Assembly: GCA_964445165.1 (NCBI GenBank)
Contig: CAYUJZ010000005.1
Location: 1-55,026 of the forward strand
Origin: an uncultured Methanosarcinales archaeon
GTDB taxonomy: Archaea > Nanobdellota > Nanobdellia > Woesearchaeales > JASKKU01
Direction: 5' to 3'
DNA: 55,026 nucleotides
Every line of letters starts with the position of its first letter. Positions within the stretch are counted from its first letter, which is position 1. Shown here in pieces: positions 6,569 to 39,303 of the stretch. The position numbers and the translations under genes were made by a program. A model generated the notes under the pieces. The model searched no databases and was not told the origin of the DNA. It was given only the letters and a program-made list of their open reading frames with translations.

Positions 6569-7324
6569 ATGCCAACGCTAACTATGGCACCAATTATAAT
6601 AGTTCTTATAATAAGTGTCCTCGGGCCAGTTGTTGGCTCTCTAATTGGCGTTATAAAAAAGCCAACCTCTAGCTTCATTCACTTAATGCTTGCTTTTGCA
6701 GCAGGGGTTATGCTTGCAGTATCTTTTCTTGAGTTAATACCTGAATCAGTAGAGCTCTCTGGGGCTTTTCTTGCAGTAGTTGGAATCGTTATTGGTTCGG
6801 TTATTATGTATGCTTTAGATAAGCTTATTCCGCATATTCACCCGGAATTATGCAGCCAGGAGCAGGGCGCGAGTCTCAAGAAAACCTCAATCTATTTAAT
6901 ACTTGGAATCTTCCTGCACAACTTTCCTGAGGGCATGGCAATTGCAATTGGCAGGGTTACAGACTTCAGGACAGCTCTTATAATTGCAATCTCAATAGCA
7001 ATCCACAACATCGCAGAAGGCATCTGCACAAGCGCCCCTTTCTATTTCTGCACAAAGAAAAGGCTCAAGTCTTTCCTTGTTTCATCTATGACAGCAATTC
7101 CAATTCTGGTTGGCTTTATAGTAGCTTATTTCGCTTTTGGCATGCTCAGCCCAACTTTGGTTGGAATCATTCTTGCAGCCACAGCAGGCCTTATGATTTA
7201 CATCTCAGCAGATGAGCTGATTCCAAGCGCCTGCAGCAAGGCTAGAAAAGAATGGAGCCACGCAACAATCTTTGCACTTATTGCGGGTATTGTGCTTGTG
7301 ATGCTTTTGGGGCTGGTTGTGTGA
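6569..7324 (+). CDS. zupT: ZIP-family divalent metal transporter (ZupT-like)
   Basis: Polytopic membrane protein with paired 'HNFPEGMAIA' and 'HNIAEGI' motifs. I prefer the ATG at 6569 over the TTG at 6512. TTTTAAAT lies at 6522-6529. Confidence 0.85.
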   Translation: MPTLTMAPIIIVLIISVLGPVVGSLIGVIKKPTSSFIHLMLAFAAGVMLAVSFLELIPESVELSGAFLAVVGIVIGSVIMYALDKLIPHIHPELCSQEQGASLKKTSIYLILGIFLHNFPEGMAIAIGRVTDFRTALIIAISIAIHNIAEGICTSAPFYFCTKKRLKSFLVSSMTAIPILVGFIVAYFAFGMLSPTLVGIILAATAGLMIYISADELIPSACSKARKEWSHATIFALIAGIVLVMLLGLVV

Positions 7325-7378
7325 TTCTCTTGGAAAAGCAAAAACTCTTTAAATCAGCCAATCTTTACAGGTGTTAAA

Positions 7379-8410
7379 ATGAGCCCGGAAGAAAAAAAAC
7401 AGCTGATAGTAAGAGACCTGCAGGAAGTAGTCGGAGAGGAAGAGCTTCTTGAAATCCTGAAAAAGAGGATCCTTAAGGTATATTGGGGCGCAGCAACAAC
7501 AGGCAAGCCTCACGTTGGCTACTTTGTACCCATGTTTAAGATAGCTGACCTGCTGAATGCCGGCTCAGAAGTCACAATCCTCTTTGCAAACCTTCATGCC
7601 TACTTAGACAACATGAAGACAAGCTGGGAACTCCTGGAAAAAAGAACCGAGTTCTACCAGCTTGTAATAAAAGAGATGCTTAAAAGAGTTAATGTTCCTC
7701 TTGAAAAGCTGAAATTCATCAAAGGCACAGACTTCCAGCTTCAGGAAAAATATACGCTTGACATGTATAAGGTTGCAGCCCTTTCCACTGTGAAAGATAC
7801 ACAGAAAGCAGGCGCAGAGGTAGTAAAGCAGATGGAGAACCCAAAGATGAGCAGCCTGGTTTACCCGATACTGCAAGCCCTGGATGAAGTCTATTTAGGT
7901 GCAGATGCACAGTTCGGGGGAGTAGACCAGAGGAAAATCTTCATGTTTGCCCGAGAATTCCTTCCAAAAATTGGCTATAATAAAAGGATTCACCTAATGA
8001 ATCCAATGGTGCCAGGACTTGGACAGGGCGGCAAGATGAGCAGCAGCGACCCAAACTCCAAGATAGACTTTGAAGACTCTGACAAGGAAATTGGAAAAAA
8101 GATTAACAAGGCTTACTCTGAAGATGGCGTGGTTGAGGATAACGGCCTGCTTGCAATGGCGAAATATGTAATCTTTAAGTTCCTTGAAAAGGAAAAAAGA
8201 GACTTCAAAATCAGCAGGCCTGAGAAATATGGAGGCAATGTTTCCTACAAGTCCTATGAAGAACTGGAGCTGGACTTTAAAGACAGGAAGCTTTCCTCCA
8301 TAGACCTTAAGTCAGGGATGTCTGAAGAGCTGATTAAGCTCATAGCACCAATCCGGGAAGTTCTCCTTAAGCACAAGAAGCTGATACAGGAGGCATATCC
8401 AGAAAAATAA
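7379..8410 (+). CDS. tyrS: Tyrosyl-tRNA synthetase (archaeal/eukaryotic type)
   Basis: HIGH-type 'PHVGY' and KMSKS-type 'KMSSS' motifs, 343 aa, with a TATA-like CTTTAAAT at 7347-7354. Confidence 0.95.
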
Positions 8411-27769: not shown

Positions 27770-30700
27770 ATGGATAACAGTAGAAATCTCCTGGTTTTAT
27801 TAGGCATCCTGGTTTTTACAGTCTCAACAGCAATCCAGGCTGGCCTGATAGTTGATATGGCTGCTCTTTCCGCTAGGCTGACTAAAACAGGCGTAGGCGA
27901 CATCCATTTCTGCGTGGAAGATCTTTCTATTGAGAGAGTTTCCCATACCTTTAATATACAGGAAGGACAGGTCCTTTCAGGGATTGAAACCGTACAGGTC
28001 AATGTGTCAAATTATATTTCTTCAGAGAATGTAACTGTCTACTATACACTGACCGATAGAACGGGCGGGCTTCATTTTAACAATAAAGCAACAATGAATG
28101 TATTAGGGGAAGGAATGGCCCAGTTCCTTTATCATCTTAACACTATAGATTACCCGGAGAGAAATTGTTTTTATAGTTTAGAATATAATTTGCACACCAA
28201 TAGAAGTTCATGTATTAAGAGATATTCTGCTTTTCGCGATGAACTATCCATTAATAACTTTGATAGCCCTCCAAGATGGGAGCAGTTCAGGAACGAGAAC
28301 TCAACCGACTTAGATGCTTTTTCTAGTTGGGTAAGAATAAGCGACATCACTCTTTTTAAAGAGGATGTAGGCAGGCTTGAGTTTGGCGGTTACTGGAATT
28401 TTGATGATGCAGACCTGGATGCCCACATTATATTTGATCAGAAAAGGTTTGCAGTTAGCCCGAATCATCTTTATTGTTTTCATAGGCCAATCTTTGTAAC
28501 GTTCTTCAATTTTACCTGGCCAGTTCCTATGATGTATAAAAATGGAGTGTATTGCGATGGTCCTGAAGACGGCTGTGAGCTGATTGATCATAATACTGAT
28601 GAGAATACAGTTTCGTATCAACTTTATGCTCCAGGAAATTTTGAGTTCTTAAGAATTCTTGGTGCGAGTGTTCGACTAAATGTATATTCAAAAGATGAAG
28701 AGTCCGAAGAATATTATATTAATCAGAATTTCGTTTTAGAGCAAGATATTTTTTTCCATACGAATTATACTGTTTCAGGTGAATTTATCAACTTCAGCAA
28801 GGTAAATTGCTCTCTAGCAATAATAGACAGAGATGACGGTGAGAGAGAGATTGCTCGTTATGGTATGGACTTGAACATTTCAAGAGCAGTTTATTATGAG
28901 GCTCGTCATTACTCTTTTATAGACCATTGGATAAATGTATCCTCAAGTTCTTTTGGCATTGGGTCCTACCTTGCCCGGGCAGAATGCAATGCTTCTGATG
29001 CAGATCCAGATGTTCCCTTTAGACAAGACGGATTTCAATTCTATGTTGACCCATATCCTGTTGATGTGGCTTTCTGGTCAGAGACTCAACCCCTTGAAAC
29101 GAATTCAACGAACTTTTCAGAGAGTATCAAAAAGCAGTTTTCAATTGGCAGCTCAAACAGGAAGATAAGATATAATAATGATACTCCTCTGGCTTTTATT
29201 TCTGTTGCATTCAAAAACAAAACATCGTCTGAGCTTCAACCGCTTACTAATCATTATGAGTGCTTTGTAAATTGGGGTGATGGGACCCAGCAGAACATAA
29301 CCCTGAACACTTCGGATATGATAAGAAACTTAACAGTTTGCGATACTCTTGGTTTTAATTGCACTGAGCACATTATTGCAGAGATTCCACACAGTTTCGA
29401 ATGGCCTGGAGATTATGTGGTTTCCATTAACTGTGGTCTTATAGAAGGAAACCTCTTCTCGAGCTTTTCTGGTCAAACAGCCGTTAATATTACTAACAGG
29501 CGCCCTCTTCATATACACCCTATACCGGATGTTACCTGGCTCCAGGGGAGGCAATACTCCCCTTTTCACCTTGACTGGTACTTCTTTGAGCCAGATGGCG
29601 AGAAGATGACTTTTTCTGTTACCAACCCTGCCCCGATATTGGTATACATAAACCAGGAAACGTCTTTAGTAGAATTGATTTCAGATGATGATTTTTCGGG
29701 TACTGTTACAGTATATTTTACGGCAACTGATCCCTGGGGGGCATATGCTACATCTAACCCTGTAAACCTTACTGTTATCCCTTTCGAGAAAGAAGAAACA
29801 AAGGAATTTGATGAAGATGATGGCCTCTATGGAGAAGAGCTCTTCTTAGAAAGGTGCCAGGAGAAGTGGAACTGCACAGAATGGGGACCCTGCCTTCCTT
29901 CTGAAATACAGCTAAGGACTTGTGTTGACATGGAAAGCTGCAATACTACTTTTAATAAGCCGCCAGAATGGAGGTTCTGCTTTTATACCCCGACCTGTTA
30001 TGACGGCCTGAAAAACCAGGGAGAATTAGGAGTTGATTGCGGCGGCCCTTGCTCGCCCTGCCCAAGCTGTAATGATGGAATCAAAAACCAGGGCGAAGAA
30101 GGCATAGACTGCGGCGGCCCTTGCCCGCCCTGCCCAACATGCTATGACGGAATACAGAACTGCCACATTATGCCAGACGGCAATATACTTTGCGAAGAAG
30201 GCATAGACTGCGGCGGTCCTTGCCCACCATGTGTTGACGAGCAAAGGCCGGGCATTGTGAGGAGCATGTTGATAAACCACCTCAACGAGTTCCTTATATT
30301 TGGCGCCCTGGCATTTCTTGCAGCATCAATTCTTTTAATCGCAGCTTCAAAAATCCCAAAAGTCGCCCTCTTTTTGTCTAAGGCATTTGACAAAATGCTG
30401 AATGCGCTAACCCTTCCGACTTTCAAGGAATTCAACCTTTACACCGAAATCATGGTCAAATTAAGCAATCTTGAGAAGTATTTCGAAAAAGGCAAAAGGG
30501 ATGTTATTCTTTCCAGGATAGACAGTACATTCAAGAAGTTTTCAGGCTTTTTGTTTTCCTGCCCTGAGGGAAGCACAGAGCAGGAGGTAATCGAGAAGGC
30601 AAGCCAGAGCAGCCTCAGAGAAGCTGACAAGATGCTTATAGAGCTATTCCTGACAAAGCTTAGCCTGGTTAAGTATTCCGGAGATGTCAAATCTGTCTCT

Positions 30701-31057
30701 AAAGCAAGATTGAGAGACCTCTTGGTAAAGCTTAAGCTTATAGTCATGAGGAGCAAGGACCTGCTCTATAAGGTTCAGGTTGAGAAAGAACTGGATGCTA
30801 TTAGGGTTAAGATGTCTTCAGCACCCAATGCAAGAAGCTTGGCAGAGTCAAGGCTCCTTTACAATATAATAAGGGAAACTTACCTCTTTTCAGGCTATGT
30901 TGAAACAAAAAAGCTTAAAAATGCGCTTCAGGCATACGAAAACATACAAAAATTATATAAACAGCTAAGATGGTGGAACAGGATTAAGGTATACCCCAGA
31001 ATCGCCCCAAGGGCAAGAATGCTTAAAGAGATGATGAGGAAGAACAGGCAAAAATGA
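27770..31057 (+). CDS. Giant type-I membrane surface glycoprotein (1095 aa): signal/anchor, large ectodomain, one cadherin/Ig-like domain, 3 x DCGGPC cysteine modules, TM helix, about 235-aa helical cytoplasmic tail
   Basis: The N-terminal hydrophobic segment is 'LLVLLGILVFTVSTAIQA'. I count about 23 N-x-S/T sequons by eye in the ectodomain. The TM helix 'FLIFGALAFLAASILLIAA' is encoded near 30290-30350. The stop overlaps the next ATG (ATGA at 31054-31057). Confidence 0.85.
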   Translation: MDNSRNLLVLLGILVFTVSTAIQAGLIVDMAALSARLTKTGVGDIHFCVEDLSIERVSHTFNIQEGQVLSGIETVQVNVSNYISSENVTVYYTLTDRTGGLHFNNKATMNVLGEGMAQFLYHLNTIDYPERNCFYSLEYNLHTNRSSCIKRYSAFRDELSINNFDSPPRWEQFRNENSTDLDAFSSWVRISDITLFKEDVGRLEFGGYWNFDDADLDAHIIFDQKRFAVSPNHLYCFHRPIFVTFFNFTWPVPMMYKNGVYCDGPEDGCELIDHNTDENTVSYQLYAPGNFEFLRILGASVRLNVYSKDEESEEYYINQNFVLEQDIFFHTNYTVSGEFINFSKVNCSLAIIDRDDGEREIARYGMDLNISRAVYYEARHYSFIDHWINVSSSSFGIGSYLARAECNASDADPDVPFRQDGFQFYVDPYPVDVAFWSETQPLETNSTNFSESIKKQFSIGSSNRKIRYNNDTPLAFISVAFKNKTSSELQPLTNHYECFVNWGDGTQQNITLNTSDMIRNLTVCDTLGFNCTEHIIAEIPHSFEWPGDYVVSINCGLIEGNLFSSFSGQTAVNITNRRPLHIHPIPDVTWLQGRQYSPFHLDWYFFEPDGEKMTFSVTNPAPILVYINQETSLVELISDDDFSGTVTVYFTATDPWGAYATSNPVNLTVIPFEKEETKEFDEDDGLYGEELFLERCQEKWNCTEWGPCLPSEIQLRTCVDMESCNTTFNKPPEWRFCFYTPTCYDGLKNQGELGVDCGGPCSPCPSCNDGIKNQGEEGIDCGGPCPPCPTCYDGIQNCHIMPDGNILCEEGIDCGGPCPPCVDEQRPGIVRSMLINHLNEFLIFGALAFLAASILLIAASKIPKVALFLSKAFDKMLNALTLPTFKEFNLYTEIMVKLSNLEKYFEKGKRDVILSRIDSTFKKFSGFLFSCPEGSTEQEVIEKASQSSLREADKMLIELFLTKLSLVKYSGDVKSVSKARLRDLLVKLKLIVMRSKDLLYKVQVEKELDAIRVKMSSAPNARSLAESRLLYNIIRETYLFSGYVETKKLKNALQAYENIQKLYKQLRWWNRIKVYPRIAPRARMLKEMMRKNRQK
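29996..30232 (+). repeat. Three tandem cysteine-rich modules C-x-DG-x-x-N-x-x-E-x-G-x-DCGGPC-x-PC (coding repeat)
   Basis: The modules start at 29996, 30068 and 30140. A near-identical 31-nt segment gaagaaggcatagactgcggcgg(c/t)ccttgccc occurs at about 30095 and about 30195. The GC content is locally elevated. Confidence 0.85.
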
Positions 31058-34000
31058 ATAAATTAAGGCTTTACTCGCTGATAGTGGGTATTCTTGCATT
31101 AGTTTATGTGTATACTTATACCCTTCCTATAGATACAAAGCTACAGATAGTTGATTTCTTCAGCCTGAGCCCCGGCAGGGATATGATTACCGGGCATCTT
31201 ACAAAGGGAGAATATCTCGGTGAATGTACAGAGCCTAACCAATTACCTTATTTCAACGACTCTTTTTTCGGAGGAGTAATCACCTTGTATGTTAATGAAA
31301 GCTTCACTCACCAGATTGGCTATGTTGACCCTGACGGTGATCCAGTTCTAGTTTTGGCAGAAGGGTCTTGGGATAAACTAACAGAACCTAATGTTTTGAA
31401 CTACAGCGGTTACCTGAACCTTACAAATCTCAGAAAGCAGGATGTTGGAATGCATATGGTTACTTTTTATGCTCATGATGCTTGTAATTATCCTCGGGGC
31501 TGGGTAGACTCAGACAGCGTTAATTTCTCAATACTGAACATCAACGTCCCGCCAGAAATAATAGGTTACTCCCCGGAAATAGACCCGCCCGCAAATGTCT
31601 CACTGAAAGAGGGCAATTCCACAAGCTTCAACATAACAGTATATGACCCCGACCTGCTTGTTAACCCTAACTTCTACAATGAGACGCTTACATACAATTG
31701 GTATCTTGACACAGAGCTTAATTATACATCAGGAGCCAGCCGGACAAATATTTCAAGCTTTACATTTTCTCCAGGCTTCTGCGACTCTGGGCTATGGAAT
31801 GTTTCTGTGAATGTTACAGATAAAGAAGGAGAATCCGAAATACATTATTGGCTCGTTGATGTTGAGGATGTCAACAGGCCTCCACACCAGAATGCGTCTT
31901 TTCCCCACAACATTACAATCAATGAGACAAAGGACTGGAGCACAGACCACATAAATGTCCTGAATCTCAATGATTACATCATAGACCCTGATGTTATTGA
32001 GTGCAGTGATCAGGATGATAACATAACATACATAAGCCATCACCCTTTTGTGCTGGTTGATCAGGCAAGCGGCAATATAACGATAAACACAACTGAGTAT
32101 TACTTTGGCAACTTCACAGTTAATTTCACAGCAACCGATACCAAGGCAGACTCCCTAGTTACTGGGAACTTATGGATAATTGTGGAAAACATTCCTGACG
32201 CTCCCATATTGAACTCAACAAGCCAGATGATAGCTTCGGGATACTTGTTTGAGTACCTGATTTCTGCGTTTCATCCAGATGGATTTAATATGAGTTTTGA
32301 TTACTCCCTGCAATATGACAGCGATGAAGTAGAGCCTGGAAGCGTGGGTTTTGACACAAGCACGGGAAACATAAGCTTTACTCCGGAGCTCCAAGGGGCA
32401 AACACCCAATCAATAATCAGGATAAACATAACCGCAACAGATGATGGGCACAGGACGGACGGAGAAGGCCCCTTCAACTCTTCAACCACATTCAACCTTA
32501 CAGTGTTTCTGAATGAGCCTCCCCAAATACTCGACTGTAGAGACATTACCACAACAGAAAATCAGATGACAACCATTGATTTCAGGTATTTGGATCCCGA
32601 AGGGGACGATGTTGAGATCTCCTTTTATAATTCATGGTTCTCATTTAGCATACATAATTCCACCCACATCAGAGCAGAATTTACGCCCCTGGATGAGCAT
32701 GCTCACGAAATTCATACTATTACAGTAAACCTAACTGACATTTGGGACATGTCGGGCTCATGCACCTTTGACTTAACTGTTATAGACATAAACAACCCGC
32801 CAGTACTGGAGATCTCTGATTTTCATCCCCTAAGAATTGGTTATCCTTATTATTACGAGGCGAACGTTACCGACTTAGACCATAATGACATTCATAACTT
32901 TACTGATAATGCAACGTTTTTTAATATCTCAACCCAGAACAGGAAAGGAATCATAAACATTTCCGAAGTAGAAGAAGAGCATGAAGGGCTTCATATTGTA
33001 AACATAACTGTCTGTGACGACGGAAACCGCCATAACCACACGATTGAGTGCGACACAAAGATAGTAGAGTTTTTGGTTGAAAGAAACAGCCCTCCTTATT
33101 TTATTGACCTTCAAGATTACTTTGAGTGTGAGCAGTATAGTGTTTGCATAATGGAATTTACCGCAGGAGACCCAGAAAACGACATACTGAACTTCTCCGT
33201 AAATGTTTCTATTTTTAACATAACTTCTACTTTTAATGAGACAACAAACCATACACTCGGAAGAATAAACTTTACACCATATATGAGGCCAGGAACAATA
33301 AACTTTACTCTTACAGTAACAGACCCCTGGGGCGATTTTAACTCTACTGAAGTTATCCTGAACATAACTGAAGTTAATACCCCTCCCGAGGTTAGTCCTG
33401 AGAACAGCACCTTGAACATTGTTACCTGGGTTAATGAGCCAACTGAAGTTCATATTTATGTACATGACAGGGAAGATGATGAAATTGGGATAACTTTAAA
33501 TGACACAAGCCTGTTTAATCTTGAAGAAATCAGCAAGTCAGACCATGGAACCTATTATGAGACCTACTTTAATGCAAGCTTTACCCCTTTAGACAACGGC
33601 ACATGGATTATTGAGATGAACATAACTGACGGGACCCATTATGTTTATGAGAACCTTACAATTGAAGTCAGGCCTGAAAATCATCCGCCTGTTTTTGGCA
33701 ACTTCTCTCCAGCTGATCCGGACGGCGAGCCGCTTATTCTGTTGGAAAAGGATACTTTGGAATTAGCTTTTGACGTTTCTGACCCTGAGGGAGATGATTT
33801 TATTGTTGAGATTTTTCTTAATAACCAGCTCGCAAAAGAAAGCAATGAGACCTCCCAAAATTACACATTCACCCCTGGCTGGTATGATGCAGGAGAGCAT
33901 TATATAAAAGCAGTTGCAACAGATGAATATGGAAAAAACAGCTCAGTAGAGTGGAGAGTTCAGGTGCTTAACCGAAACAGGCTTCCTATTGGATGCAAAA

Positions 34001-35523
34001 GGGTATTTAATTCAACAATGGATTTGGATTGGCTTAACAATAGTATCCTGGATAATGTAGAAATGCTGGTTTCTGGCGAATTTGCCCTTGAAAGAAACCC
34101 TTCTGGAAATTATTACCAATCAGGCTATTTAACTTTCCCAACGATTTACTTCAGGACAGAGGATGTTATTAACCCTTCCGTAATCCTGAGTGCTAATTTC
34201 TCAGAATATCTGGAAAATTCGACATCCTGCTTTACCAACTTAAGCATACAATACCGCTACGGCCGAAATTCTCCACCTTTGGAGATGATAAACCAGCTTA
34301 TCTGGTCAAGTTGGTCTCCGGAAAATTATACTCTGAATCAGGGTCTGCAGATGCCCGATAATATAACCCCGAAGTACTGGAACTTCAGGGTAAACTTTCA
34401 TACAACCTGCCAGAACCACTCCCCTCTGCTTGAATCAGCGCATTTTAGTTATTCTCCTAGGAAAAAAACCTTCCTTCAGGGAGCAAACATGTCACAATGG
34501 GTCTTTATGGATGATTTCTTTTATGACCCAGATGCCGATAACCTGCTTTCTTTTGATTACAATACCTCTTTAGGCCCAGCAAACAGCTCTCCGGTTTCTG
34601 TTCACACTGACCCTCCCGGCAGGACTTGGCCTCCAAACGATTGGCTTTATATAGCTTCTCCAACACTTTACACCGGTGATGTAATTATCAATCTTTTTGT
34701 TCATGATGAATATGATGCGGATGCACAATGTGCCTTTAACCTAAGTTTTATGCAGAGGCCTTCTGATGTTGGGACTCAGATAAGGTACGAGATACAGACA
34801 AGAACAGAAGTAATCTACGAAGAAAGAATTGTTGAGAAGGAGATTCCTGAGTTAATTTCCTTTAACCTTTTGGTTCCTGAATCAGTTACTATGTACCCGA
34901 ACGATACAATTGTTGTTCCTATCACTCTGGACAATTACGGGAATCATACTCTTAAGAATATAAAGCTTTTTGCAAATTCCTCGCATGAGCAGGCAGAATT
35001 GCTTTTATCAAAAGACGATTTTGAGTTAATCCCGGCGGGGCACCAGGAGAGGACTGAGCTTTTTATTACTGCAAAGAACATCCACGGCCAGTTTGATGTC
35101 TGGGTTCAGGCTTATGTTGAAGAGCCGCATTACAACGACACAGCAAAGATAATTATGGCTACCCTTGAAAAAGGAGAGCACAACTCAACCCAGCTCAACA
35201 CCAAGGTTACATATACTAAAGACCTTCTTAGGGCAAACCTGGAATGTGCAGAGCTTTATGAGATGATTGACGAGGCAGAGCGGCTGATCCAGCAAGGAAA
35301 TCTCTATAGCGCTGAGGAGATTCTTCGCTCAGCTACAGAAGCATGCAAGTACATAGTTTCCCTGGAGAGGCCTCAGGATATAACAGTAAGCAGGAGAGCC
35401 ACAGACATCAGGCTTTCATTGGAAAACAATGCATTCATAATCATGTTCCTTATTGCAGCTTCTTTTGTGCTTCTTGTAGTATTGATATACTGGATAACCC
35501 TCCCTAAAAAAGAACTAAAATAA
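31054..35523 (+). CDS. Giant surface glycoprotein (1489 aa) with about nine tandem cadherin-like domains and a C-terminal TM anchor
   Basis: The N-terminal hydrophobic segment is 'LIVGILALVYVYTYT'. Inter-domain linkers of the type (V/I)-x-(D/E)-x-N-x-P-P recur every 93-110 aa. I count about 70 N-x-S/T sequons by eye. The C-terminal TM is 'FIIMFLIAASFVLLVVLIYWI', followed by 'LPKKELK'. Confidence 0.85.
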   Translation: MNKLRLYSLIVGILALVYVYTYTLPIDTKLQIVDFFSLSPGRDMITGHLTKGEYLGECTEPNQLPYFNDSFFGGVITLYVNESFTHQIGYVDPDGDPVLVLAEGSWDKLTEPNVLNYSGYLNLTNLRKQDVGMHMVTFYAHDACNYPRGWVDSDSVNFSILNINVPPEIIGYSPEIDPPANVSLKEGNSTSFNITVYDPDLLVNPNFYNETLTYNWYLDTELNYTSGASRTNISSFTFSPGFCDSGLWNVSVNVTDKEGESEIHYWLVDVEDVNRPPHQNASFPHNITINETKDWSTDHINVLNLNDYIIDPDVIECSDQDDNITYISHHPFVLVDQASGNITINTTEYYFGNFTVNFTATDTKADSLVTGNLWIIVENIPDAPILNSTSQMIASGYLFEYLISAFHPDGFNMSFDYSLQYDSDEVEPGSVGFDTSTGNISFTPELQGANTQSIIRINITATDDGHRTDGEGPFNSSTTFNLTVFLNEPPQILDCRDITTTENQMTTIDFRYLDPEGDDVEISFYNSWFSFSIHNSTHIRAEFTPLDEHAHEIHTITVNLTDIWDMSGSCTFDLTVIDINNPPVLEISDFHPLRIGYPYYYEANVTDLDHNDIHNFTDNATFFNISTQNRKGIINISEVEEEHEGLHIVNITVCDDGNRHNHTIECDTKIVEFLVERNSPPYFIDLQDYFECEQYSVCIMEFTAGDPENDILNFSVNVSIFNITSTFNETTNHTLGRINFTPYMRPGTINFTLTVTDPWGDFNSTEVILNITEVNTPPEVSPENSTLNIVTWVNEPTEVHIYVHDREDDEIGITLNDTSLFNLEEISKSDHGTYYETYFNASFTPLDNGTWIIEMNITDGTHYVYENLTIEVRPENHPPVFGNFSPADPDGEPLILLEKDTLELAFDVSDPEGDDFIVEIFLNNQLAKESNETSQNYTFTPGWYDAGEHYIKAVATDEYGKNSSVEWRVQVLNRNRLPIGCKRVFNSTMDLDWLNNSILDNVEMLVSGEFALERNPSGNYYQSGYLTFPTIYFRTEDVINPSVILSANFSEYLENSTSCFTNLSIQYRYGRNSPPLEMINQLIWSSWSPENYTLNQGLQMPDNITPKYWNFRVNFHTTCQNHSPLLESAHFSYSPRKKTFLQGANMSQWVFMDDFFYDPDADNLLSFDYNTSLGPANSSPVSVHTDPPGRTWPPNDWLYIASPTLYTGDVIINLFVHDEYDADAQCAFNLSFMQRPSDVGTQIRYEIQTRTEVIYEERIVEKEIPELISFNLLVPESVTMYPNDTIVVPITLDNYGNHTLKNIKLFANSSHEQAELLLSKDDFELIPAGHQERTELFITAKNIHGQFDVWVQAYVEEPHYNDTAKIIMATLEKGEHNSTQLNTKVTYTKDLLRANLECAELYEMIDEAERLIQQGNLYSAEEILRSATEACKYIVSLERPQDITVSRRATDIRLSLENNAFIIMFLIAASFVLLVVLIYWITLPKKELK

Positions 35524-35573
35524 CTGAATAAGATTTCTTTTGGATAAACAGATTAATCTTAGCAGCATATAAG

Positions 35574-36245
35574 CTATTGCTTGCTCTTCCTTTTGTTCAT
35601 CTCTTTTTTTATGTCAATGAAAAGCTCAAGGATGTCTCCTTTTATTGATTCTTTTTCCTTTTCATCAAGATATGAGAAGTCTCGTTTTATTCTTTCGTAA
35701 GCTTTTGCAGCTTCCTCCAGGTCAGACCGGTCAAGCAGAAGGTAAGCATTTATTATCATTTTTTCAATACCCTGTTTAGTCCTGTTTTTCTGCCAGAAGA
35801 ATTTTCGTTTCTTTTTTTTGCTTTGCTTCTTTCTGCTCTTCTCATCTGCCTGCTTTTCTTTTCTTTCATTTTCCATCTCGTTGATAATCCTTATAAATTC
35901 GTTTATTGACTCAGTTAATTCAGTAGAGGTGAGCTGGCTTGATGAGAATTCCAGGCTGGAGACCTTGTTGTTATATTCAGCAAGGGCTTTCTTGAACTTG
36001 CTTGAGAAGGCCCTGCTTTTCCTGATTTCATTGTTTATTTCCTCAAAAGATAAAGAATACCTTTCCTTGAGCATCTTAGAATAGTACCTTCTCAATGCAT
36101 GAATAAAATTAATGCATGATTCGTGAACCTTGGTTTTTGATAGCCGTTTTTCAATAGTCCTCAACTCTGAGAGAAGGATGCTTGCAGGGGTTTCTTCTTC
36201 TTCCTTCTTCTTGCCAAAAAGAGAAAACAGCCGCTTCTTTGCCAT
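35574..36245 (-). CDS. Soluble helical K-rich protein sharing a DUF4129-like module with the tail of the 27770 protein (223 aa)
   Basis: 'SLSFEEINNEI...(same spacing)...SLEFSSSQLTSTEL' parallels 'EGSTEQEVIEKA...LVKYSGDVKSVSKARL' in the 27770 protein. It also has the poly-K stretch 'KKQSKKKKRK'. Confidence 0.55.
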   Translation of the reverse strand: MAKKRLFSLFGKKKEEEETPASILLSELRTIEKRLSKTKVHESCINFIHALRRYYSKMLKERYSLSFEEINNEIRKSRAFSSKFKKALAEYNNKVSSLEFSSSQLTSTELTESINEFIRIINEMENERKEKQADEKSRKKQSKKKKRKFFWQKNRTKQGIEKMIINAYLLLDRSDLEEAAKAYERIKRDFSYLDEKEKESIKGDILELFIDIKKEMNKRKSKQ

Positions 36246-36338
36246 ATTTTTCCCATAAGGCTTTTTAAGTTTAAAAAGTTATTCTTAACTAGGGGATTAA
36301 TAAAGAATTTTTTATATGATGCTCGATGTGAAATCAAT

Positions 36339-37325
36339 ATGGCAGACACTCTCCCGGTTGAAGAAGCTAAAAAGATAAAAGAGCAGGTTGATACAGCCAA
36401 AAAAGAGATTAAAAAGATATTCATTGGCCAGGATGAGATTGTAAACAGCTTTCTAACATGTATGTTCTCAAACGGCTCTGTTCTTATCGAAGGAGTCCCG
36501 GGCTTAGGAAAGACGCTTCTTGCACGTACAATTGCTGCAGTCCTTGGATGCAAATTTTCCAGGATTCAGTTTACGCCAGACCTGCTGCCAACAGACATCA
36601 TTGGAGTTACAACATACGAAAAAGAGAGAGGCTTCTATGTTTTAAAAGGGCCGGTGTTCAGCAACATAGTCCTTGCAGATGAGATTAACAGGGCTCCGCC
36701 AAAGGTTCAGTCAGCCCTTCTGGAGTCTATGCAGGAGAAGCAGGCAACAATCGGAAAGGAAACATTTCCCCTGCCGGTTCCTTTCTTTGTGCTGGCTACA
36801 GAAAACCCGCTGGAAAGCCTTGGGACATACCCTCTTCCAGAGGCGCAGCTTGATAGGTTTCTATTTAAGATTTTTATCTCTTATCCCGGATTCGACGAGG
36901 AGCTGATGGTTCTTGATACAAACATCACTTCGAAGAAATTTGAGGATTACAGCATTCAGCCAGTTCTTTCGTCATCTTTAATCATGGACATACAGAGCAA
37001 GGTAAAAGAGGTTTATACAGATGATAAGGTAAAGCATTACATAGTCAAGATAGTGGATGCAACGAGGAATCCAGGGAACTATAAGCTTAAAACCGGGAAA
37101 TATATCAGCTATGGCTCATCTCCAAGGGCTTCCATCGCAACTTACATCAGCAGCAAGGTGGATGCATTGCTCTTGGGCAAGAATTTTGTTACGCCATTCA
37201 ATGTCAAGAGAGTTGTAAGGCACATTCTTAATCACAGGATCGGCATAAACTTTGAGGGAGAGTCTGAAGGCATTAAGCCCTTTGAGATTATTGATGAGAT
37301 AATGGACAAGATACCTGTGCCGTGA
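36339..37325 (+). CDS. moxR: MoxR-family AAA+ ATPase
   Basis: Walker A 'GVPGLGKT' and Walker B/sensor 'VLADEINRAPPKVQSALLESMQE'. 328 aa. Confidence 0.9.
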   Translation: MADTLPVEEAKKIKEQVDTAKKEIKKIFIGQDEIVNSFLTCMFSNGSVLIEGVPGLGKTLLARTIAAVLGCKFSRIQFTPDLLPTDIIGVTTYEKERGFYVLKGPVFSNIVLADEINRAPPKVQSALLESMQEKQATIGKETFPLPVPFFVLATENPLESLGTYPLPEAQLDRFLFKIFISYPGFDEELMVLDTNITSKKFEDYSIQPVLSSSLIMDIQSKVKEVYTDDKVKHYIVKIVDATRNPGNYKLKTGKYISYGSSPRASIATYISSKVDALLLGKNFVTPFNVKRVVRHILNHRIGINFEGESEGIKPFEIIDEIMDKIPVP

Positions 37326-38213
37326 GTGATTCTTATGCTAACAGAGCTCAAAGTAAACCTTAAGCCGCTTGTAAAGAAGCTTGAGGTTTACAGCAAGAAA
37401 AATGTAAGCGGTGAGCTGGCTGGAGGCTACAGGACCTTCTTTAAGGGGCGCGGCCTGGATTTTGATGGTTACAGGAAATACGAAGTTATGGACGACTCTA
37501 ACCAGATTGACTGGAAGGCAAGCCTGAGGGCCCAGGACCTTCTGATTAAGGTTTTTCTCGAAGAGAGGAACCTGGATGTATTCATCCTCTTTGACACAAG
37601 CGCAAGCATGTGCTTTTCTTCAACAGACCAGCTTAAGTGCGAGTATGCAGCAGAGGCGATAGCAAGCATTGCCTTTGCTTCAATTCAGGTAGGGGACAAT
37701 GTAGGCCTGGTTATGTTTAATGACAGCGTAAAGGCTATGATTAAGCCAAAGCAGGGAAAAGCCCAGTTTGGTAAAATTGTGCACACTCTGTCAAACCCCA
37801 AGCACTATGACGGCCAGTTTGACCTTAAAGCTGCAATCAGCGTAGTTAATTCAGTTATGAAGAGGGAAGGCATAGTGATTATAGTCTCAGACTTTATCGG
37901 GTTGCCTGATAACTGGAGGACTTTGCTGGCCGGGCTTACCTCAAAGTGCGACCTTTTTGCAATAATGATAAGAGACCCCAGGGACGAGGAACTCCCAGAT
38001 GAGCTGCAGGAAGTCTCGGTCTCCGACCCCTACTCAAATGAAACTGTGCTCTTTAACACAAGAGAGTTCAAAGAAAGGTTCAACAGGAACGCGATTGCAA
38101 TAAAAGAGGATATTATTCATAACATAAAGCTTTTAAGGGGAAACTTCCTGGAGCTAAAGACAACAGAGCCCTTTGAGAAGAAAATCATATCATTTTTTCG
38201 CAAAGCAGCTTAA
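37326..38213 (+). CDS. DUF58-family protein (vWA-like, MoxR-associated)
   Basis: 'FKGRGLDFDGYRKYEVMDDSNQIDWKASLRAQDLLIKVFLEERN..ILFDTSASM'. Starts (GTG 37326 or ATG 37335) directly after the moxR stop. Confidence 0.8.
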   Translation: MILMLTELKVNLKPLVKKLEVYSKKNVSGELAGGYRTFFKGRGLDFDGYRKYEVMDDSNQIDWKASLRAQDLLIKVFLEERNLDVFILFDTSASMCFSSTDQLKCEYAAEAIASIAFASIQVGDNVGLVMFNDSVKAMIKPKQGKAQFGKIVHTLSNPKHYDGQFDLKAAISVVNSVMKREGIVIIVSDFIGLPDNWRTLLAGLTSKCDLFAIMIRDPRDEELPDELQEVSVSDPYSNETVLFNTREFKERFNRNAIAIKEDIIHNIKLLRGNFLELKTTEPFEKKIISFFRKAA

Positions 38214-38224
38214 GATAATCAAAA

Positions 38225-39184
38225 ATGGCATATCTGGCAATAAACAATGCGGAATTTCTTTGGCTTCTGGTTCTGATAGCCTGGATAATCCTTACGCATT
38301 TGTTCATTTCTTCAAAGATAAAGAGAAAGGCATTTGCCTTTGCAAATTTTGAGGCGCTTAAGAGAGTAGTCTATTCCAAAGAGAAAAGCACGACTAAGAC
38401 GAACAAGGTTTCGCTTAACTTTGACATTCTCTTTGTAAGAATTCTTGCAGTTATGTTCTTTGTTTTTGCACTGACGAATCCTGTTCTTTGGTATGAGGGC
38501 AGTGTTTCAGAGCAAAATTATGTTCTTGCAATTGATGCTTCCAGCTCTATGCTGGCAGACGACCTTCCACCAAACAGGTTTCAGCTGGCAAAGCAGCTTT
38601 CAGAATTCTTCTTGAACAGGGTCAGGGAAATAAGATCTGAGCTGGGCCTGGTTTCTTTTGCTGGCTCTTCACTGATAATCTCTCCCCTCTCGACTGATTA
38701 TGACCGGCTCGGGCTTCTTATCAACTCTCTTGAAATCTCAAGAATCCCTGGAACAGACCTGGGCCAGGCAATTATAACTTCTGTGAACCTGATAGTTGCA
38801 TCCGGGGAGCCTGGTGCAGTTGTGTTGGTTACAGATGGCAGGTCAACTGTCGGAACCCAGATTGAGGAAGCAGTTTACTATGCAAGAGACTCAAAGGTGC
38901 CTGTACACACAGTAGGAGTAGGAACCGAAGAAGGAGGCCAATTTGTAGGAGCTGGCTTCACTAAGCTTGACGAAGAGGCGTTAACAGCAATTTCTGAAGC
39001 AACAGGCGGAACCTTCTTCAGGGCAGAAGATAGGGACGAGTTTGGAGAGGCAATGAGAGACGTGTTTGATATCAAGAAAGGTCAGGTGCCATTTGACTTA
39101 TCAGTATTCTTTCTTATTCTTGGGCTGATTCTTGTGCTGGTTGAGTGGGGGATACTTAACACGCGAAGAAGAATCCTGCCTTAA
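38225..39184 (+). CDS. BatA-like membrane-anchored von Willebrand factor A domain protein
   Basis: Two N-terminal TM helices and one C-terminal TM helix. The MIDAS motif is 'AIDASSSM', followed by 'LVTDGRST'. Confidence 0.8.
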   Translation: MAYLAINNAEFLWLLVLIAWIILTHLFISSKIKRKAFAFANFEALKRVVYSKEKSTTKTNKVSLNFDILFVRILAVMFFVFALTNPVLWYEGSVSEQNYVLAIDASSSMLADDLPPNRFQLAKQLSEFFLNRVREIRSELGLVSFAGSSLIISPLSTDYDRLGLLINSLEISRIPGTDLGQAIITSVNLIVASGEPGAVVLVTDGRSTVGTQIEEAVYYARDSKVPVHTVGVGTEEGGQFVGAGFTKLDEEALTAISEATGGTFFRAEDRDEFGEAMRDVFDIKKGQVPFDLSVFFLILGLILVLVEWGILNTRRRILP

Positions 39185-39229: not shown

Positions 39230-39303
39230 GGGACGGTAGCTCAGCCTGGGAGAGCACACGGCTGAAGACCGTGGTGTCGGGGGTTCAAGTCCCCCCCGTC
39301 CCA
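39230..39303 (+). tRNA. tRNA-Phe (anticodon GAA)
   Basis: Hand fold: acceptor GGGACGG/CCGTCCC, D arm GCTC-AGCCTGGGA-GAGC, anticodon stem CACGG/CCGTG, loop CTGAAGA, T arm GGGGG-TTCAAGT-CCCCC. Confidence 0.9.

Follow-up and report, generated by a model that had tools for sequence, protein, structure and literature searches.

Six adjacent genes at positions 27770 to 39184 of a 55,026-nucleotide (nt) stretch of archaeal DNA (contig CAYUJZ010000005.1; "the window" means this whole stretch) are predicted to encode two large membrane-anchored surface glycoproteins (G1 and G2), a soluble helical protein of 223 amino acids (aa), S223, and a triad made up of a MoxR ATPase, a DUF58 protein and a BatA-type vWA protein. 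Comparison with loci from other contigs (given L-numbers) supports the block as a conserved unit, and the cytoplasmic tail of G1 and S223 are two homologous copies of one undescribed domain, here named the S-module. With slightly more confidence than doubt, we read the whole as a coupled system, a surface cluster specific to the Woesearchaeota/DPANN lineage in which the MoxR-DUF58-BatA triad serves the G1/G2 glycoprotein complex. All Woesearchaeota genomes used came from uncultured sources.

The six long open reading frames (ORFs) that a preliminary description of this DNA had listed (G1, G2, S223, MoxR, DUF58 and vWA) were confirmed at the same coordinates, and the two giant proteins were found as claimed there, with lengths of 1095 and 1489 aa, membrane anchors and a G1 stop codon that overlaps the G2 start as ATGA. 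S223 is transcribed towards G2 and away from MoxR. The DUF58 gene begins 0 to 10 nt past the moxR stop (its likely start, based on gene calls in L001 and on the sequence, is the ATG at 37335, giving 292 aa), and BatA begins 11 nt past DUF58. The features are as follows.

27770-31057, plus strand: G1, type-I-like membrane glycoprotein of 1095 aa (ORF call, transmembrane [TM] segments, sequons, orthologues in at least 14 loci)
29852-30235, plus strand: membrane-proximal Cys-rich stalk of G1, a WxCxxWxxC-type segment and then three 24-aa CxDGxxNxxExGxDCGGxCxxC modules
30368-31054, plus strand: cytoplasmic tail of G1, the S-module, a predicted all-helical domain of ~200 aa (hhalign; hidden Markov model [HMM] match 2.9e-52)
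31054-35523, plus strand: G2, predicted surface glycoprotein of 1489 aa with 72 sequons, a C-terminal TM segment and a 4-aa tail
35574-36245, minus strand: S223, soluble, 223 aa, no TM segment, the free-standing paralogue of the G1 tail
36246-36338, no strand: divergent, A/T-rich intergenic region of 93 bp between S223 and moxR, with TATA-like elements ~25 nt upstream of each start codon
36339-37325, plus strand: MoxR, MRP-type AAA+ ATPase of 328 aa (AAA_3 and AAA_lid_2)
37326-38213, plus strand: DUF58 protein, cytoplasmic and vWA-like, with the metal ion-dependent adhesion site (MIDAS) motif DTSAS
38225-39184, plus strand: BatA-type membrane vWA protein of 319 aa with three TM segments and the MIDAS motif DASSS
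39230-39303: tRNA-Phe, just past BatA

The preliminary description had been concerned that the giant ORFs might be assembly chimeras. An independent 24-kb ENA contig repeats the G2-S223-MoxR-DUF58-BatA stretch plus downstream genes, JGI and Logan contigs carry shorter pieces of the G2-to-BatA stretch, and a separate ENA contig holds an identical G1. Because these sequences were assembled independently, in several metagenomes, the locus is not a chimera.

Gene order around MoxR

The forward test set comprised 24 DPANN MoxR loci (the window, L011-L031, L038 and L039). An S-module gene stands beside MoxR in 19 of them, and the order G1-G2-S-MoxR-DUF58-BatA was found in 14, with 3 more cut by contig ends; S lies on the opposite strand in the ordered loci, except in L019. 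Genes outside the block differ in nearly all loci, so the conserved order is not residual synteny. For the reverse test, contigs were looked up from the matches of an exhaustive profile search (described below) to free S-module proteins (type A) and G1-type proteins (type B), and MoxR-DUF58-vWA was present within 4 kb in all five informative contigs (L056-L059 and L063). In Woesearchaeota-type genomes, the association of the giant genes with moxR-DUF58-vWA goes far beyond what chance would give, a comparison for which the preliminary description had called.

S is the most faithful MoxR partner: in L013 and L059, an extended S is kept divergent to MoxR-DUF58-BatA although the giant genes are gone. 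These extended genes lie at L013:5479-7491 (minus strand, 670 aa) and L059:8733-10145 (470 aa); L013 has a second, partial module copy, and a PPDK_N-domain protein takes the place of the giant glycoprotein genes in both loci. In a MoxR neighbour-joining tree, both branches of the basal DPANN split contained loci with giant genes, suggesting that the linkage is ancestral and was lost afterwards in some lineages.

The tRNA-Phe, which the preliminary description had counted as the closing element of the block, proved incidental. Only in the window and close relatives (L007:2887-2962; L056:5925-5999) does it stand after BatA, and the 13 more distant loci that were scanned all lack it there, which rules it out as a component of the system. 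Other neighbouring genes of the block encode PCNA, S3Ae and L35Ae, which mark the host as an archaeon. The TATA-like elements in the 93-bp S223/moxR gap may be promoter elements; a sigma-70 promoter and terminator scan returned shuffle-level signals only and is uninformative for an archaeal host.

The nearest relatives are metagenome-assembled genomes (MAGs) labelled Candidatus Woesearchaeota or Nanoarchaeota. Six ENA "binchicken" MAGs (L013, L015, L016, L022, L024 and L038) are titled "uncultured Methanosarcinales archaeon" and carry a DPANN-type cluster; these titles look unreliable, because the MoxR proteins of the MAGs nest among Woesearchaeota sequences. Elsewhere in the window, Rfam identified a 123-nt tRNA at 1762-1884 on the minus strand (54.6 bits) that was not reported by ARAGORN. 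Its length makes an intron probable, which fits an archaeal host.

The S-module and its comparison with DUF4129

Pairwise BLASTP of the G1 tail against S223 was not significant (E=2.2). From 30 loci fetched via MoxR, 15 S-like proteins and 15 G1-type tails were therefore built into two profiles, and hhalign aligned these over 198 columns, almost their entire length (probability 99.2%, E=1.3e-19, score 130; the reversed tail profile scored 15.6 and 30 column-shuffled profiles at most 12.6). A joint S/tail HMM detected the held-out L013, L016, L019 and L022 at 1e-16 to 1e-34 and found exactly two copies in the window. At the level of sequence profiles, homology of the G1 tail and S223 holds over the whole ~200-aa domain. 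The preliminary description had proposed that the two share a helical module and had set down in advance that an insignificant profile comparison would speak against this; the comparison was significant. The tail itself was found after the second TM segment, where it had been placed, and measures 229 aa where ~235 had been given.

Residues conserved in both S and tail include R52, FTxEE (S223 positions 65-69), A179, Y183, Y190 and L193, with E69 and Y183 kept in at least 90% of sequences. The duplication that separated S from tail appears to be old, because the two sets of sequences group largely separately and not by genome. AlphaFold2 modelled S223 from a 38-sequence alignment as entirely helical (pLDDT 91.3, pTM 0.61); we read the eight predicted helices as a bundle at the N-terminus that a long helix links to three further helices at the C-terminus, and the C-terminal part is TPR-like by sequence.

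An exhaustive hmmsearch of 1.84 billion cluster representatives (E <=1e-3) recovered only 72 representatives with an S-module, which makes it a rare domain; they fall into three architectures. Type A comprises free soluble proteins of ~205-260 aa, some extended to 320-670 aa, and type B, recovered through its C-terminus, has the G1 architecture (signal, Cys/DCGG-rich ectodomain, TM segment and the module at the C-terminus). Type C has an N-terminal TM hairpin, the module at aa ~100-300 and then an extension of 300-500 aa without a Pfam match (L055:1922-4183, L060:7998-10406 and L061:3000-4733 are examples). Type C genes are always paired with an ORF of ~348 aa and adjoin the primase small subunit; a Cas4-like gene is present in L055 and L060. 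Word-indexed homologue searches found few matches (2 for S223, 3 for G1 and 1 for the 30-sequence module alignment), because the families are too divergent and of too low complexity for that index; homologues were therefore taken from the MoxR-fetched loci and the exhaustive HMM search.

No Pfam family was consistently matched by 30 or 38 S-module members, and Foldseek found no PDB match at E <=0.001 for either a shallow or the confident S223 model. The shallow model resembled the Vps4 MIT domain (target-normalised TM-score 0.6, probability ~0.75, but E >3); for the confident model, MIT was not among the 50 best matches, the top one being a HEPN-like four-helix bundle (E=0.22). Both resemblances, at E from 0.22 to >3, were set aside as generic helical-bundle similarity. 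Profile searches of PDB sequences found no significant match for the module, either whole or as its C-terminal part alone, nor for the G2 stalk or the Cys-rich region of G1; the module reached only designed, PPR or TPR helical hairpins (E >=0.002). Judged from sequence profiles and a structural model, the S-module represents a new domain family that is absent from Pfam and whose predicted fold is confident.

The label "DUF4129-like", under which the preliminary description had placed this domain, was not substantiated. PF13559 (DUF4129) matched neither the G1 tail nor S223 at E up to 10 and was matched by none of 30 or 38 family members, whereas the positive control, a haloarchaeal DUF4129 protein (L042), scored 55 bits. 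Against a profile of 13 annotated haloarchaeal plasmid DUF4129 genes, hhalign gave S an E-value of 0.77, the tail 0.068 and the 38-sequence profile 0.092, none of them significant, with scores of 10-18 that are near noise; the alignments kept a constant register of TxxE, ~25 residues and (R/E)Y(G/S). Used as a query of genome contigs, the haloarchaeal protein retrieved no related loci. The G1 tail does hold a DUF4129-like position (cytoplasmic, after a TM helix) with genomic linkage to DUF58 and MoxR, and the likeness is best described as an analogy of position and motif, homology being undemonstrated.

DUF4129 or transglutaminase (TgpA, DUF3488) proteins form clusters with DUF58 and MoxR in haloarchaea and actinobacteria. 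In one, the Halomarina plasmid NZ_CP100452.1 (L042:8857-12360 and 6998-7966), the order is DUF4129-DUF7269-DUF58-DUF7519 with a MoxR ATPase nearby; on several other haloarchaeal plasmids a DUF4129 gene abuts DUF58, and TgpA/DUF3488 transglutaminase proteins have a DUF4129-like C-terminus. In a striking parallel with the window, a small helical domain stands behind a TM helix with DUF58 and MoxR adjacent; one copy ends a large membrane protein as its C-terminal tail, and another belongs to a small protein of its own. The S-module differs in being three times longer, with three additional C-terminal helices of TPR-like sequence; its large partner is an Ig/Cys-rich glycoprotein and not a transglutaminase, and its free copy (S223) is soluble where theirs is membrane anchored.

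Surface glycoproteins and the MoxR-DUF58-BatA triad

Hydropathy placed an N-terminal hydrophobic (signal/TM) segment in G1 at aa 4-33 and a second TM segment at aa ~841-866, followed by the K/R-rich tail; G2 has a signal/TM segment at its N-terminus and a C-terminal TM segment at aa 1454-1485. Both giants are saturated with N-glycosylation sequons, as the preliminary description had it: G1 has 23 where 9.1 are expected from composition, all in the ectodomain, and G2 has 72 where 19.5 are expected (Poisson P ~6e-20), compared with an observed/expected ratio of 1.04 in other window ORFs. Across families the enrichment is 3.2x expected in G2, 2.5x in G1, and 3.1x and 2.4x in two accessory proteins, c5 and c6, against 0.6-1.3x in MoxR, DUF58, S and BatA. 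It is limited to predicted extracellular proteins, the exception among these being the outside domain of BatA.

The DCGGPC cysteine modules reported earlier were found three times in window G1 (aa 756, 780 and 813). All G1 orthologues carry 1-4 copies of the 24-aa module directly N-terminal to the TM segment, preceded by the WxCxxWxxC segment and an Ig/cadherin-like domain, and have an N-terminal "head" of variable length. The Cys-rich region had no match in Pfam or PDB sequences. Of the cadherin-like repeats that had been proposed, the Ig-like part stands for G2, where Big_9 scored 34.2 bits (Pfam cut-off 23.6), Tandem-95 repeats matched in 3 stretches and self-BLAST was consistent with ~8-9 divergent Ig-like repeats of ~95 aa between aa ~70 and 980. 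In window G1, Big_9 at aa 607-662 was sub-threshold (17.4 bits), and a cadherin family was matched only in the G1 orthologue L017 (Cadherin_5, 27.9 bits against a cut-off of 26.5).

BLAST detected no paralogy between G1 and G2, and no S-layer family was among their domain matches. Both have diverged to ~25% identity between genera, while MoxR keeps 57-66%; over the loci of the forward test, MoxR is 57-71% identical to window MoxR. The most conserved part of G2 is a membrane-proximal stalk at aa ~1260-1445 (window 34831-35388; 41% column identity), which comprises a CARDB-like beta domain with invariant NDT/NxT sequon asparagines and then a helical hairpin that carries two invariant Cys residues. 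Neither Pfam nor PDB searches gave a match for this stalk. Most relatives carry accessory surface genes upstream of G1 (L012:2-1026, L017:104-1754, L018:140-2375 and L031:375-3292), namely c4 (~400 aa, TM segments at both ends, weak CARDB-like matches), c5 (~145 aa, N-terminal TM segment, weak ASH/Ig-like matches) and c6 (~210 aa, N-terminal TM segment, sequon- and Cys-rich). All three were looked for in the window and are absent there.

The preliminary assignments of MoxR, DUF58 and a three-TM vWA/MIDAS protein hold, with Pfam scores above cut-offs and DxSxS motifs present; the three are ordinary members of the known MoxR-DUF58-vWA triad. MoxR matched AAA_3 (5.5e-59, 198 bits, cut-off 27) and AAA_lid_2 (3.6e-11, 43 bits) and has intact Walker A (GVPGLGKT) and Walker B (LADE) motifs. 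The DUF58 protein matched PF01882 (7.8e-49, 166 bits, cut-off 23.4) and VWA_2 (8e-13). BatA matched the BatA N-terminal domain (1.3e-6, 29.2 bits, cut-off 25.9) and VWA (2e-14, 54.6 bits), with a MIDAS pattern of DASSS...T...D; the NCBIfam BatA "exception" model scored below its cut-off (4.5e-30, 104.8 against 380), so the window protein is not an equivalog. By hydropathy, TM segments lie at aa ~11-29, 66-86 and 292-312 of BatA, and there are none in S223, MoxR or DUF58. The TM1-TM2 loop of BatA has ~10 Lys/Arg and its C-terminus ends in RRR, so the positive-inside rule predicts an outward vWA domain. An outward (periplasmic) orientation of a three-TM BatA-type vWA protein was shown experimentally for Borrelia BB0173 (PMC5700661).

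The closest known systems share the core of this arrangement. MRP-type MoxR-DUF58-vWA operons, including Bat (Bacteroides aerotolerance) and Borrelia bb0170-bb0176, have the same three core genes in the same order and a vWA domain that faces outside (shown for BB0173, predicted here). They differ in that the present locus, from a DPANN host, lacks BatB, BatC (TPR), BatD and BatE (TPR/SH3), so that it is not a full Bat operon, and instead encodes a pair of large glycoproteins and a new helical protein. Behind BatA stand tRNA-Phe and PCNA in the window, and relatives have unrelated genes there. In the mycobacterial cluster ripA-ripB-moxR1-Rv1480(DUF58)-Rv1481(vWA), MoxR1 is needed for RipA export and is a reported chaperone (PMC12067865). 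There too, exported envelope proteins are encoded directly upstream of the triad, although the clients are small NlpC/P60 hydrolases without a TM segment or cytoplasmic tail, and there is no tail or adaptor module. In the bifidobacterial PFNA cluster, pkb2-fn3-moxR-duf58-tgm (PMC8430577), the neighbour of MoxR and DUF58 is likewise a large glycoprotein, secreted or on the surface, whose FN3 repeats have an Ig fold. PFNA differs in having a Ser/Thr kinase and a transglutaminase membrane protein and no BatA; domain scans found no kinase, FN3 or transglutaminase domain in the six window proteins. Because ripAB-moxR1 and PFNA both pair MoxR operons with exported or surface proteins, the logic of a client encoded next door is supported.

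Proposed mechanism, alternatives and significance

In the mechanism that we propose, G1 and G2 would be co-translated through the ATGA overlap and form a membrane-anchored complex, the DCGGxC modules of G1 serving as a disulphide-rich stalk and the Ig-like repeats of G2 as its distal part. The S-module tail of G1 would be the only folded cytoplasmic domain of this complex and its sole cytoplasmic handle. A cytoplasmic MoxR hexamer may work through the vWA-like adaptor DUF58, which would dock on the G1 tail, possibly by ligation of the near-invariant acidic FTxEE motif of the S-module at the DUF58 MIDAS, and ATP use by MoxR would bring about assembly, maturation or remodelling of the G1/G2 complex. 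S223 could serve as an adaptor or could compete with the G1 tail for its binding site, and the external MIDAS vWA domain of BatA could bind the acidic, glycosylated ectodomains. The system may either build an envelope or adhesion structure and control its quality, or adjust adhesion dynamically from the inside of the cell outwards. Assembly or maturation of a surface complex is favoured over reversible signalling; the cluster offers no signal input.

Several points weigh against this coupled reading. The coupling of G1, G2 and S to the triad was inferred wholly from gene order and domain sharing, and contact between the DUF58 MIDAS and E69 is pure inference. Five loci (L021, L023, L024, L029 and L030), which fall in two small MoxR subclades (L021/L024/L030 and L023/L029), have MoxR-DUF58-BatA with no S, G1 or G2 nearby, so the triad can work without them. 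Three housekeeping genes stand between S and MoxR in L058 and L063. The S-module also occurs away from MoxR, in type C proteins, and since these are encoded beside primase it is not a dedicated MoxR tag. Finally, the predicted outside domain of BatA is not enriched in sequons (0.62x expected).

Four other explanations were weighed. The first, which we regard as speculative and unlikely though worth keeping in view, follows the preliminary description's model of inside-out regulated adhesion or host attachment in an episymbiont. In this integrin-like scheme MoxR/DUF58 would remodel the G1 tail at the cost of ATP, S223 would gate it, and the ectodomains together with the BatA MIDAS would switch between low and high affinity for a host cell. 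Integrins have an external MIDAS/vWA domain and a receptor with a short cytoplasmic domain that soluble factors can bind; the parallel is a functional analogy only, with no homology to the G1/G2/BatA system. The components would suit it: the Ig/cadherin-like surface protein has a single folded domain in the cytoplasm, a vWA domain with a MIDAS would lie outside, and S223, as a soluble paralogue, could compete as talin and filamin do. DPANN archaea are, besides, commonly host-attached. Reversible regulation is, however, indistinguishable here from one-off assembly, domain scans found no host-binding domain, kinase or sensor in the cluster proteins, and the MoxR precedent with experimental support, RipA, concerns export and maturation and not signalling.

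A second explanation, which we consider improbable, makes G1 and G2 the main S-layer-type glycoproteins of the envelope, with the triad merely co-regulated for envelope maintenance and the S-module serving in cytoskeletal contact or anchoring. Archaeal envelope glycoproteins are typically large, anchored at the C-terminus and saturated with sequons, the accessory surface genes c4-c6 are often co-clustered, and Rhizobium mutants in homologous genes have envelope-integrity defects (PMC5700661). The S-layer-type features of the giant proteins are generic ones (signal peptide, C-terminal TM segment, sequon saturation). Set against this reading, the sequences of G1 and G2 change quickly (25% identity between genera), domain scans gave no S-layer family match, and S stays by MoxR when the giant genes are absent, which ties it to MoxR and not to the envelope proteins.

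Adjacency without functional coupling would mean that the order was simply inherited in a compact DPANN genome and that S223 and the G1 tail have nothing to do with MoxR function. We think this very unlikely: the close relatives L007-L011 and L056 do share even their housekeeping flanks, and five MoxR triads lack giant genes, but in nearly all other loci the block persists while its flanks reshuffle, and a family of only 72 clusters in 1.84e9 representatives is nonetheless MoxR-adjacent in 19/24 and 5/5 cases. An NTP-dependent role in conflict or defence, as in ternary MoxR-vWA systems, a class proposed as conflict systems (cited in PMC12067865) and suggested here by a Pfam bpMoxR match (5.5e-12), is scarcely credible, given that AAA_3 matches far more strongly (5.5e-59), that Pfam found no beta-propeller or effector domain in the six proteins, that PADLOC returned only two weak MoxR matches (DolB, 1.9e-5; IetA, 4e-4) and that the locus is chromosomal and vertically inherited with housekeeping flanks.

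The preliminary description knew of no published version of this arrangement, and none was found in the searchable literature; full-text searches of that literature, which is incomplete, returned no paper linking Woesearchaeota or DPANN with this MoxR cluster. The triad itself is already known, and there are earlier examples of MoxR-DUF58 linked with exported or surface proteins. What is new is the S-module family, with its double use as receptor tail and soluble twin, and a conserved Woesearchaeal cluster with Ig/Cys-rich glycoproteins.

Few conserved neighbourhoods in bacteria and archaea are, to our knowledge, as widespread as MoxR(MRP)-DUF58-vWA operons, which still lack a mechanism and have mostly unknown clients. 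The coupled system proposed here would offer an unusually explicit wiring, with a defined client (G1/G2), a single folded domain of that client in the cytoplasm and, back-to-back with moxR, the gene for a soluble paralogue of this domain, and it offers binary interactions that can be tested (tail with S, module with the DUF58 MIDAS, and BatA vWA with ectodomain). More speculatively, and we hold this only as a tentative suggestion, the S-module could be the element by which DUF58-MoxR recognises membrane-spanning clients, a functional and perhaps very distant evolutionary counterpart of DUF4129. If so, MRP-type MoxR-DUF58 systems would in general be transmembrane remodelling machines that act on the cytoplasmic tails of surface proteins and so control assembly or conformation outside the cell, and their Woesearchaeal client would be an Ig/Cys-rich glycoprotein pair for cell-cell contact. 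For DPANN biology, this conserved surface cluster of 6-9 genes may be what Woesearchaeota use to build their envelope or to make contact with a host.

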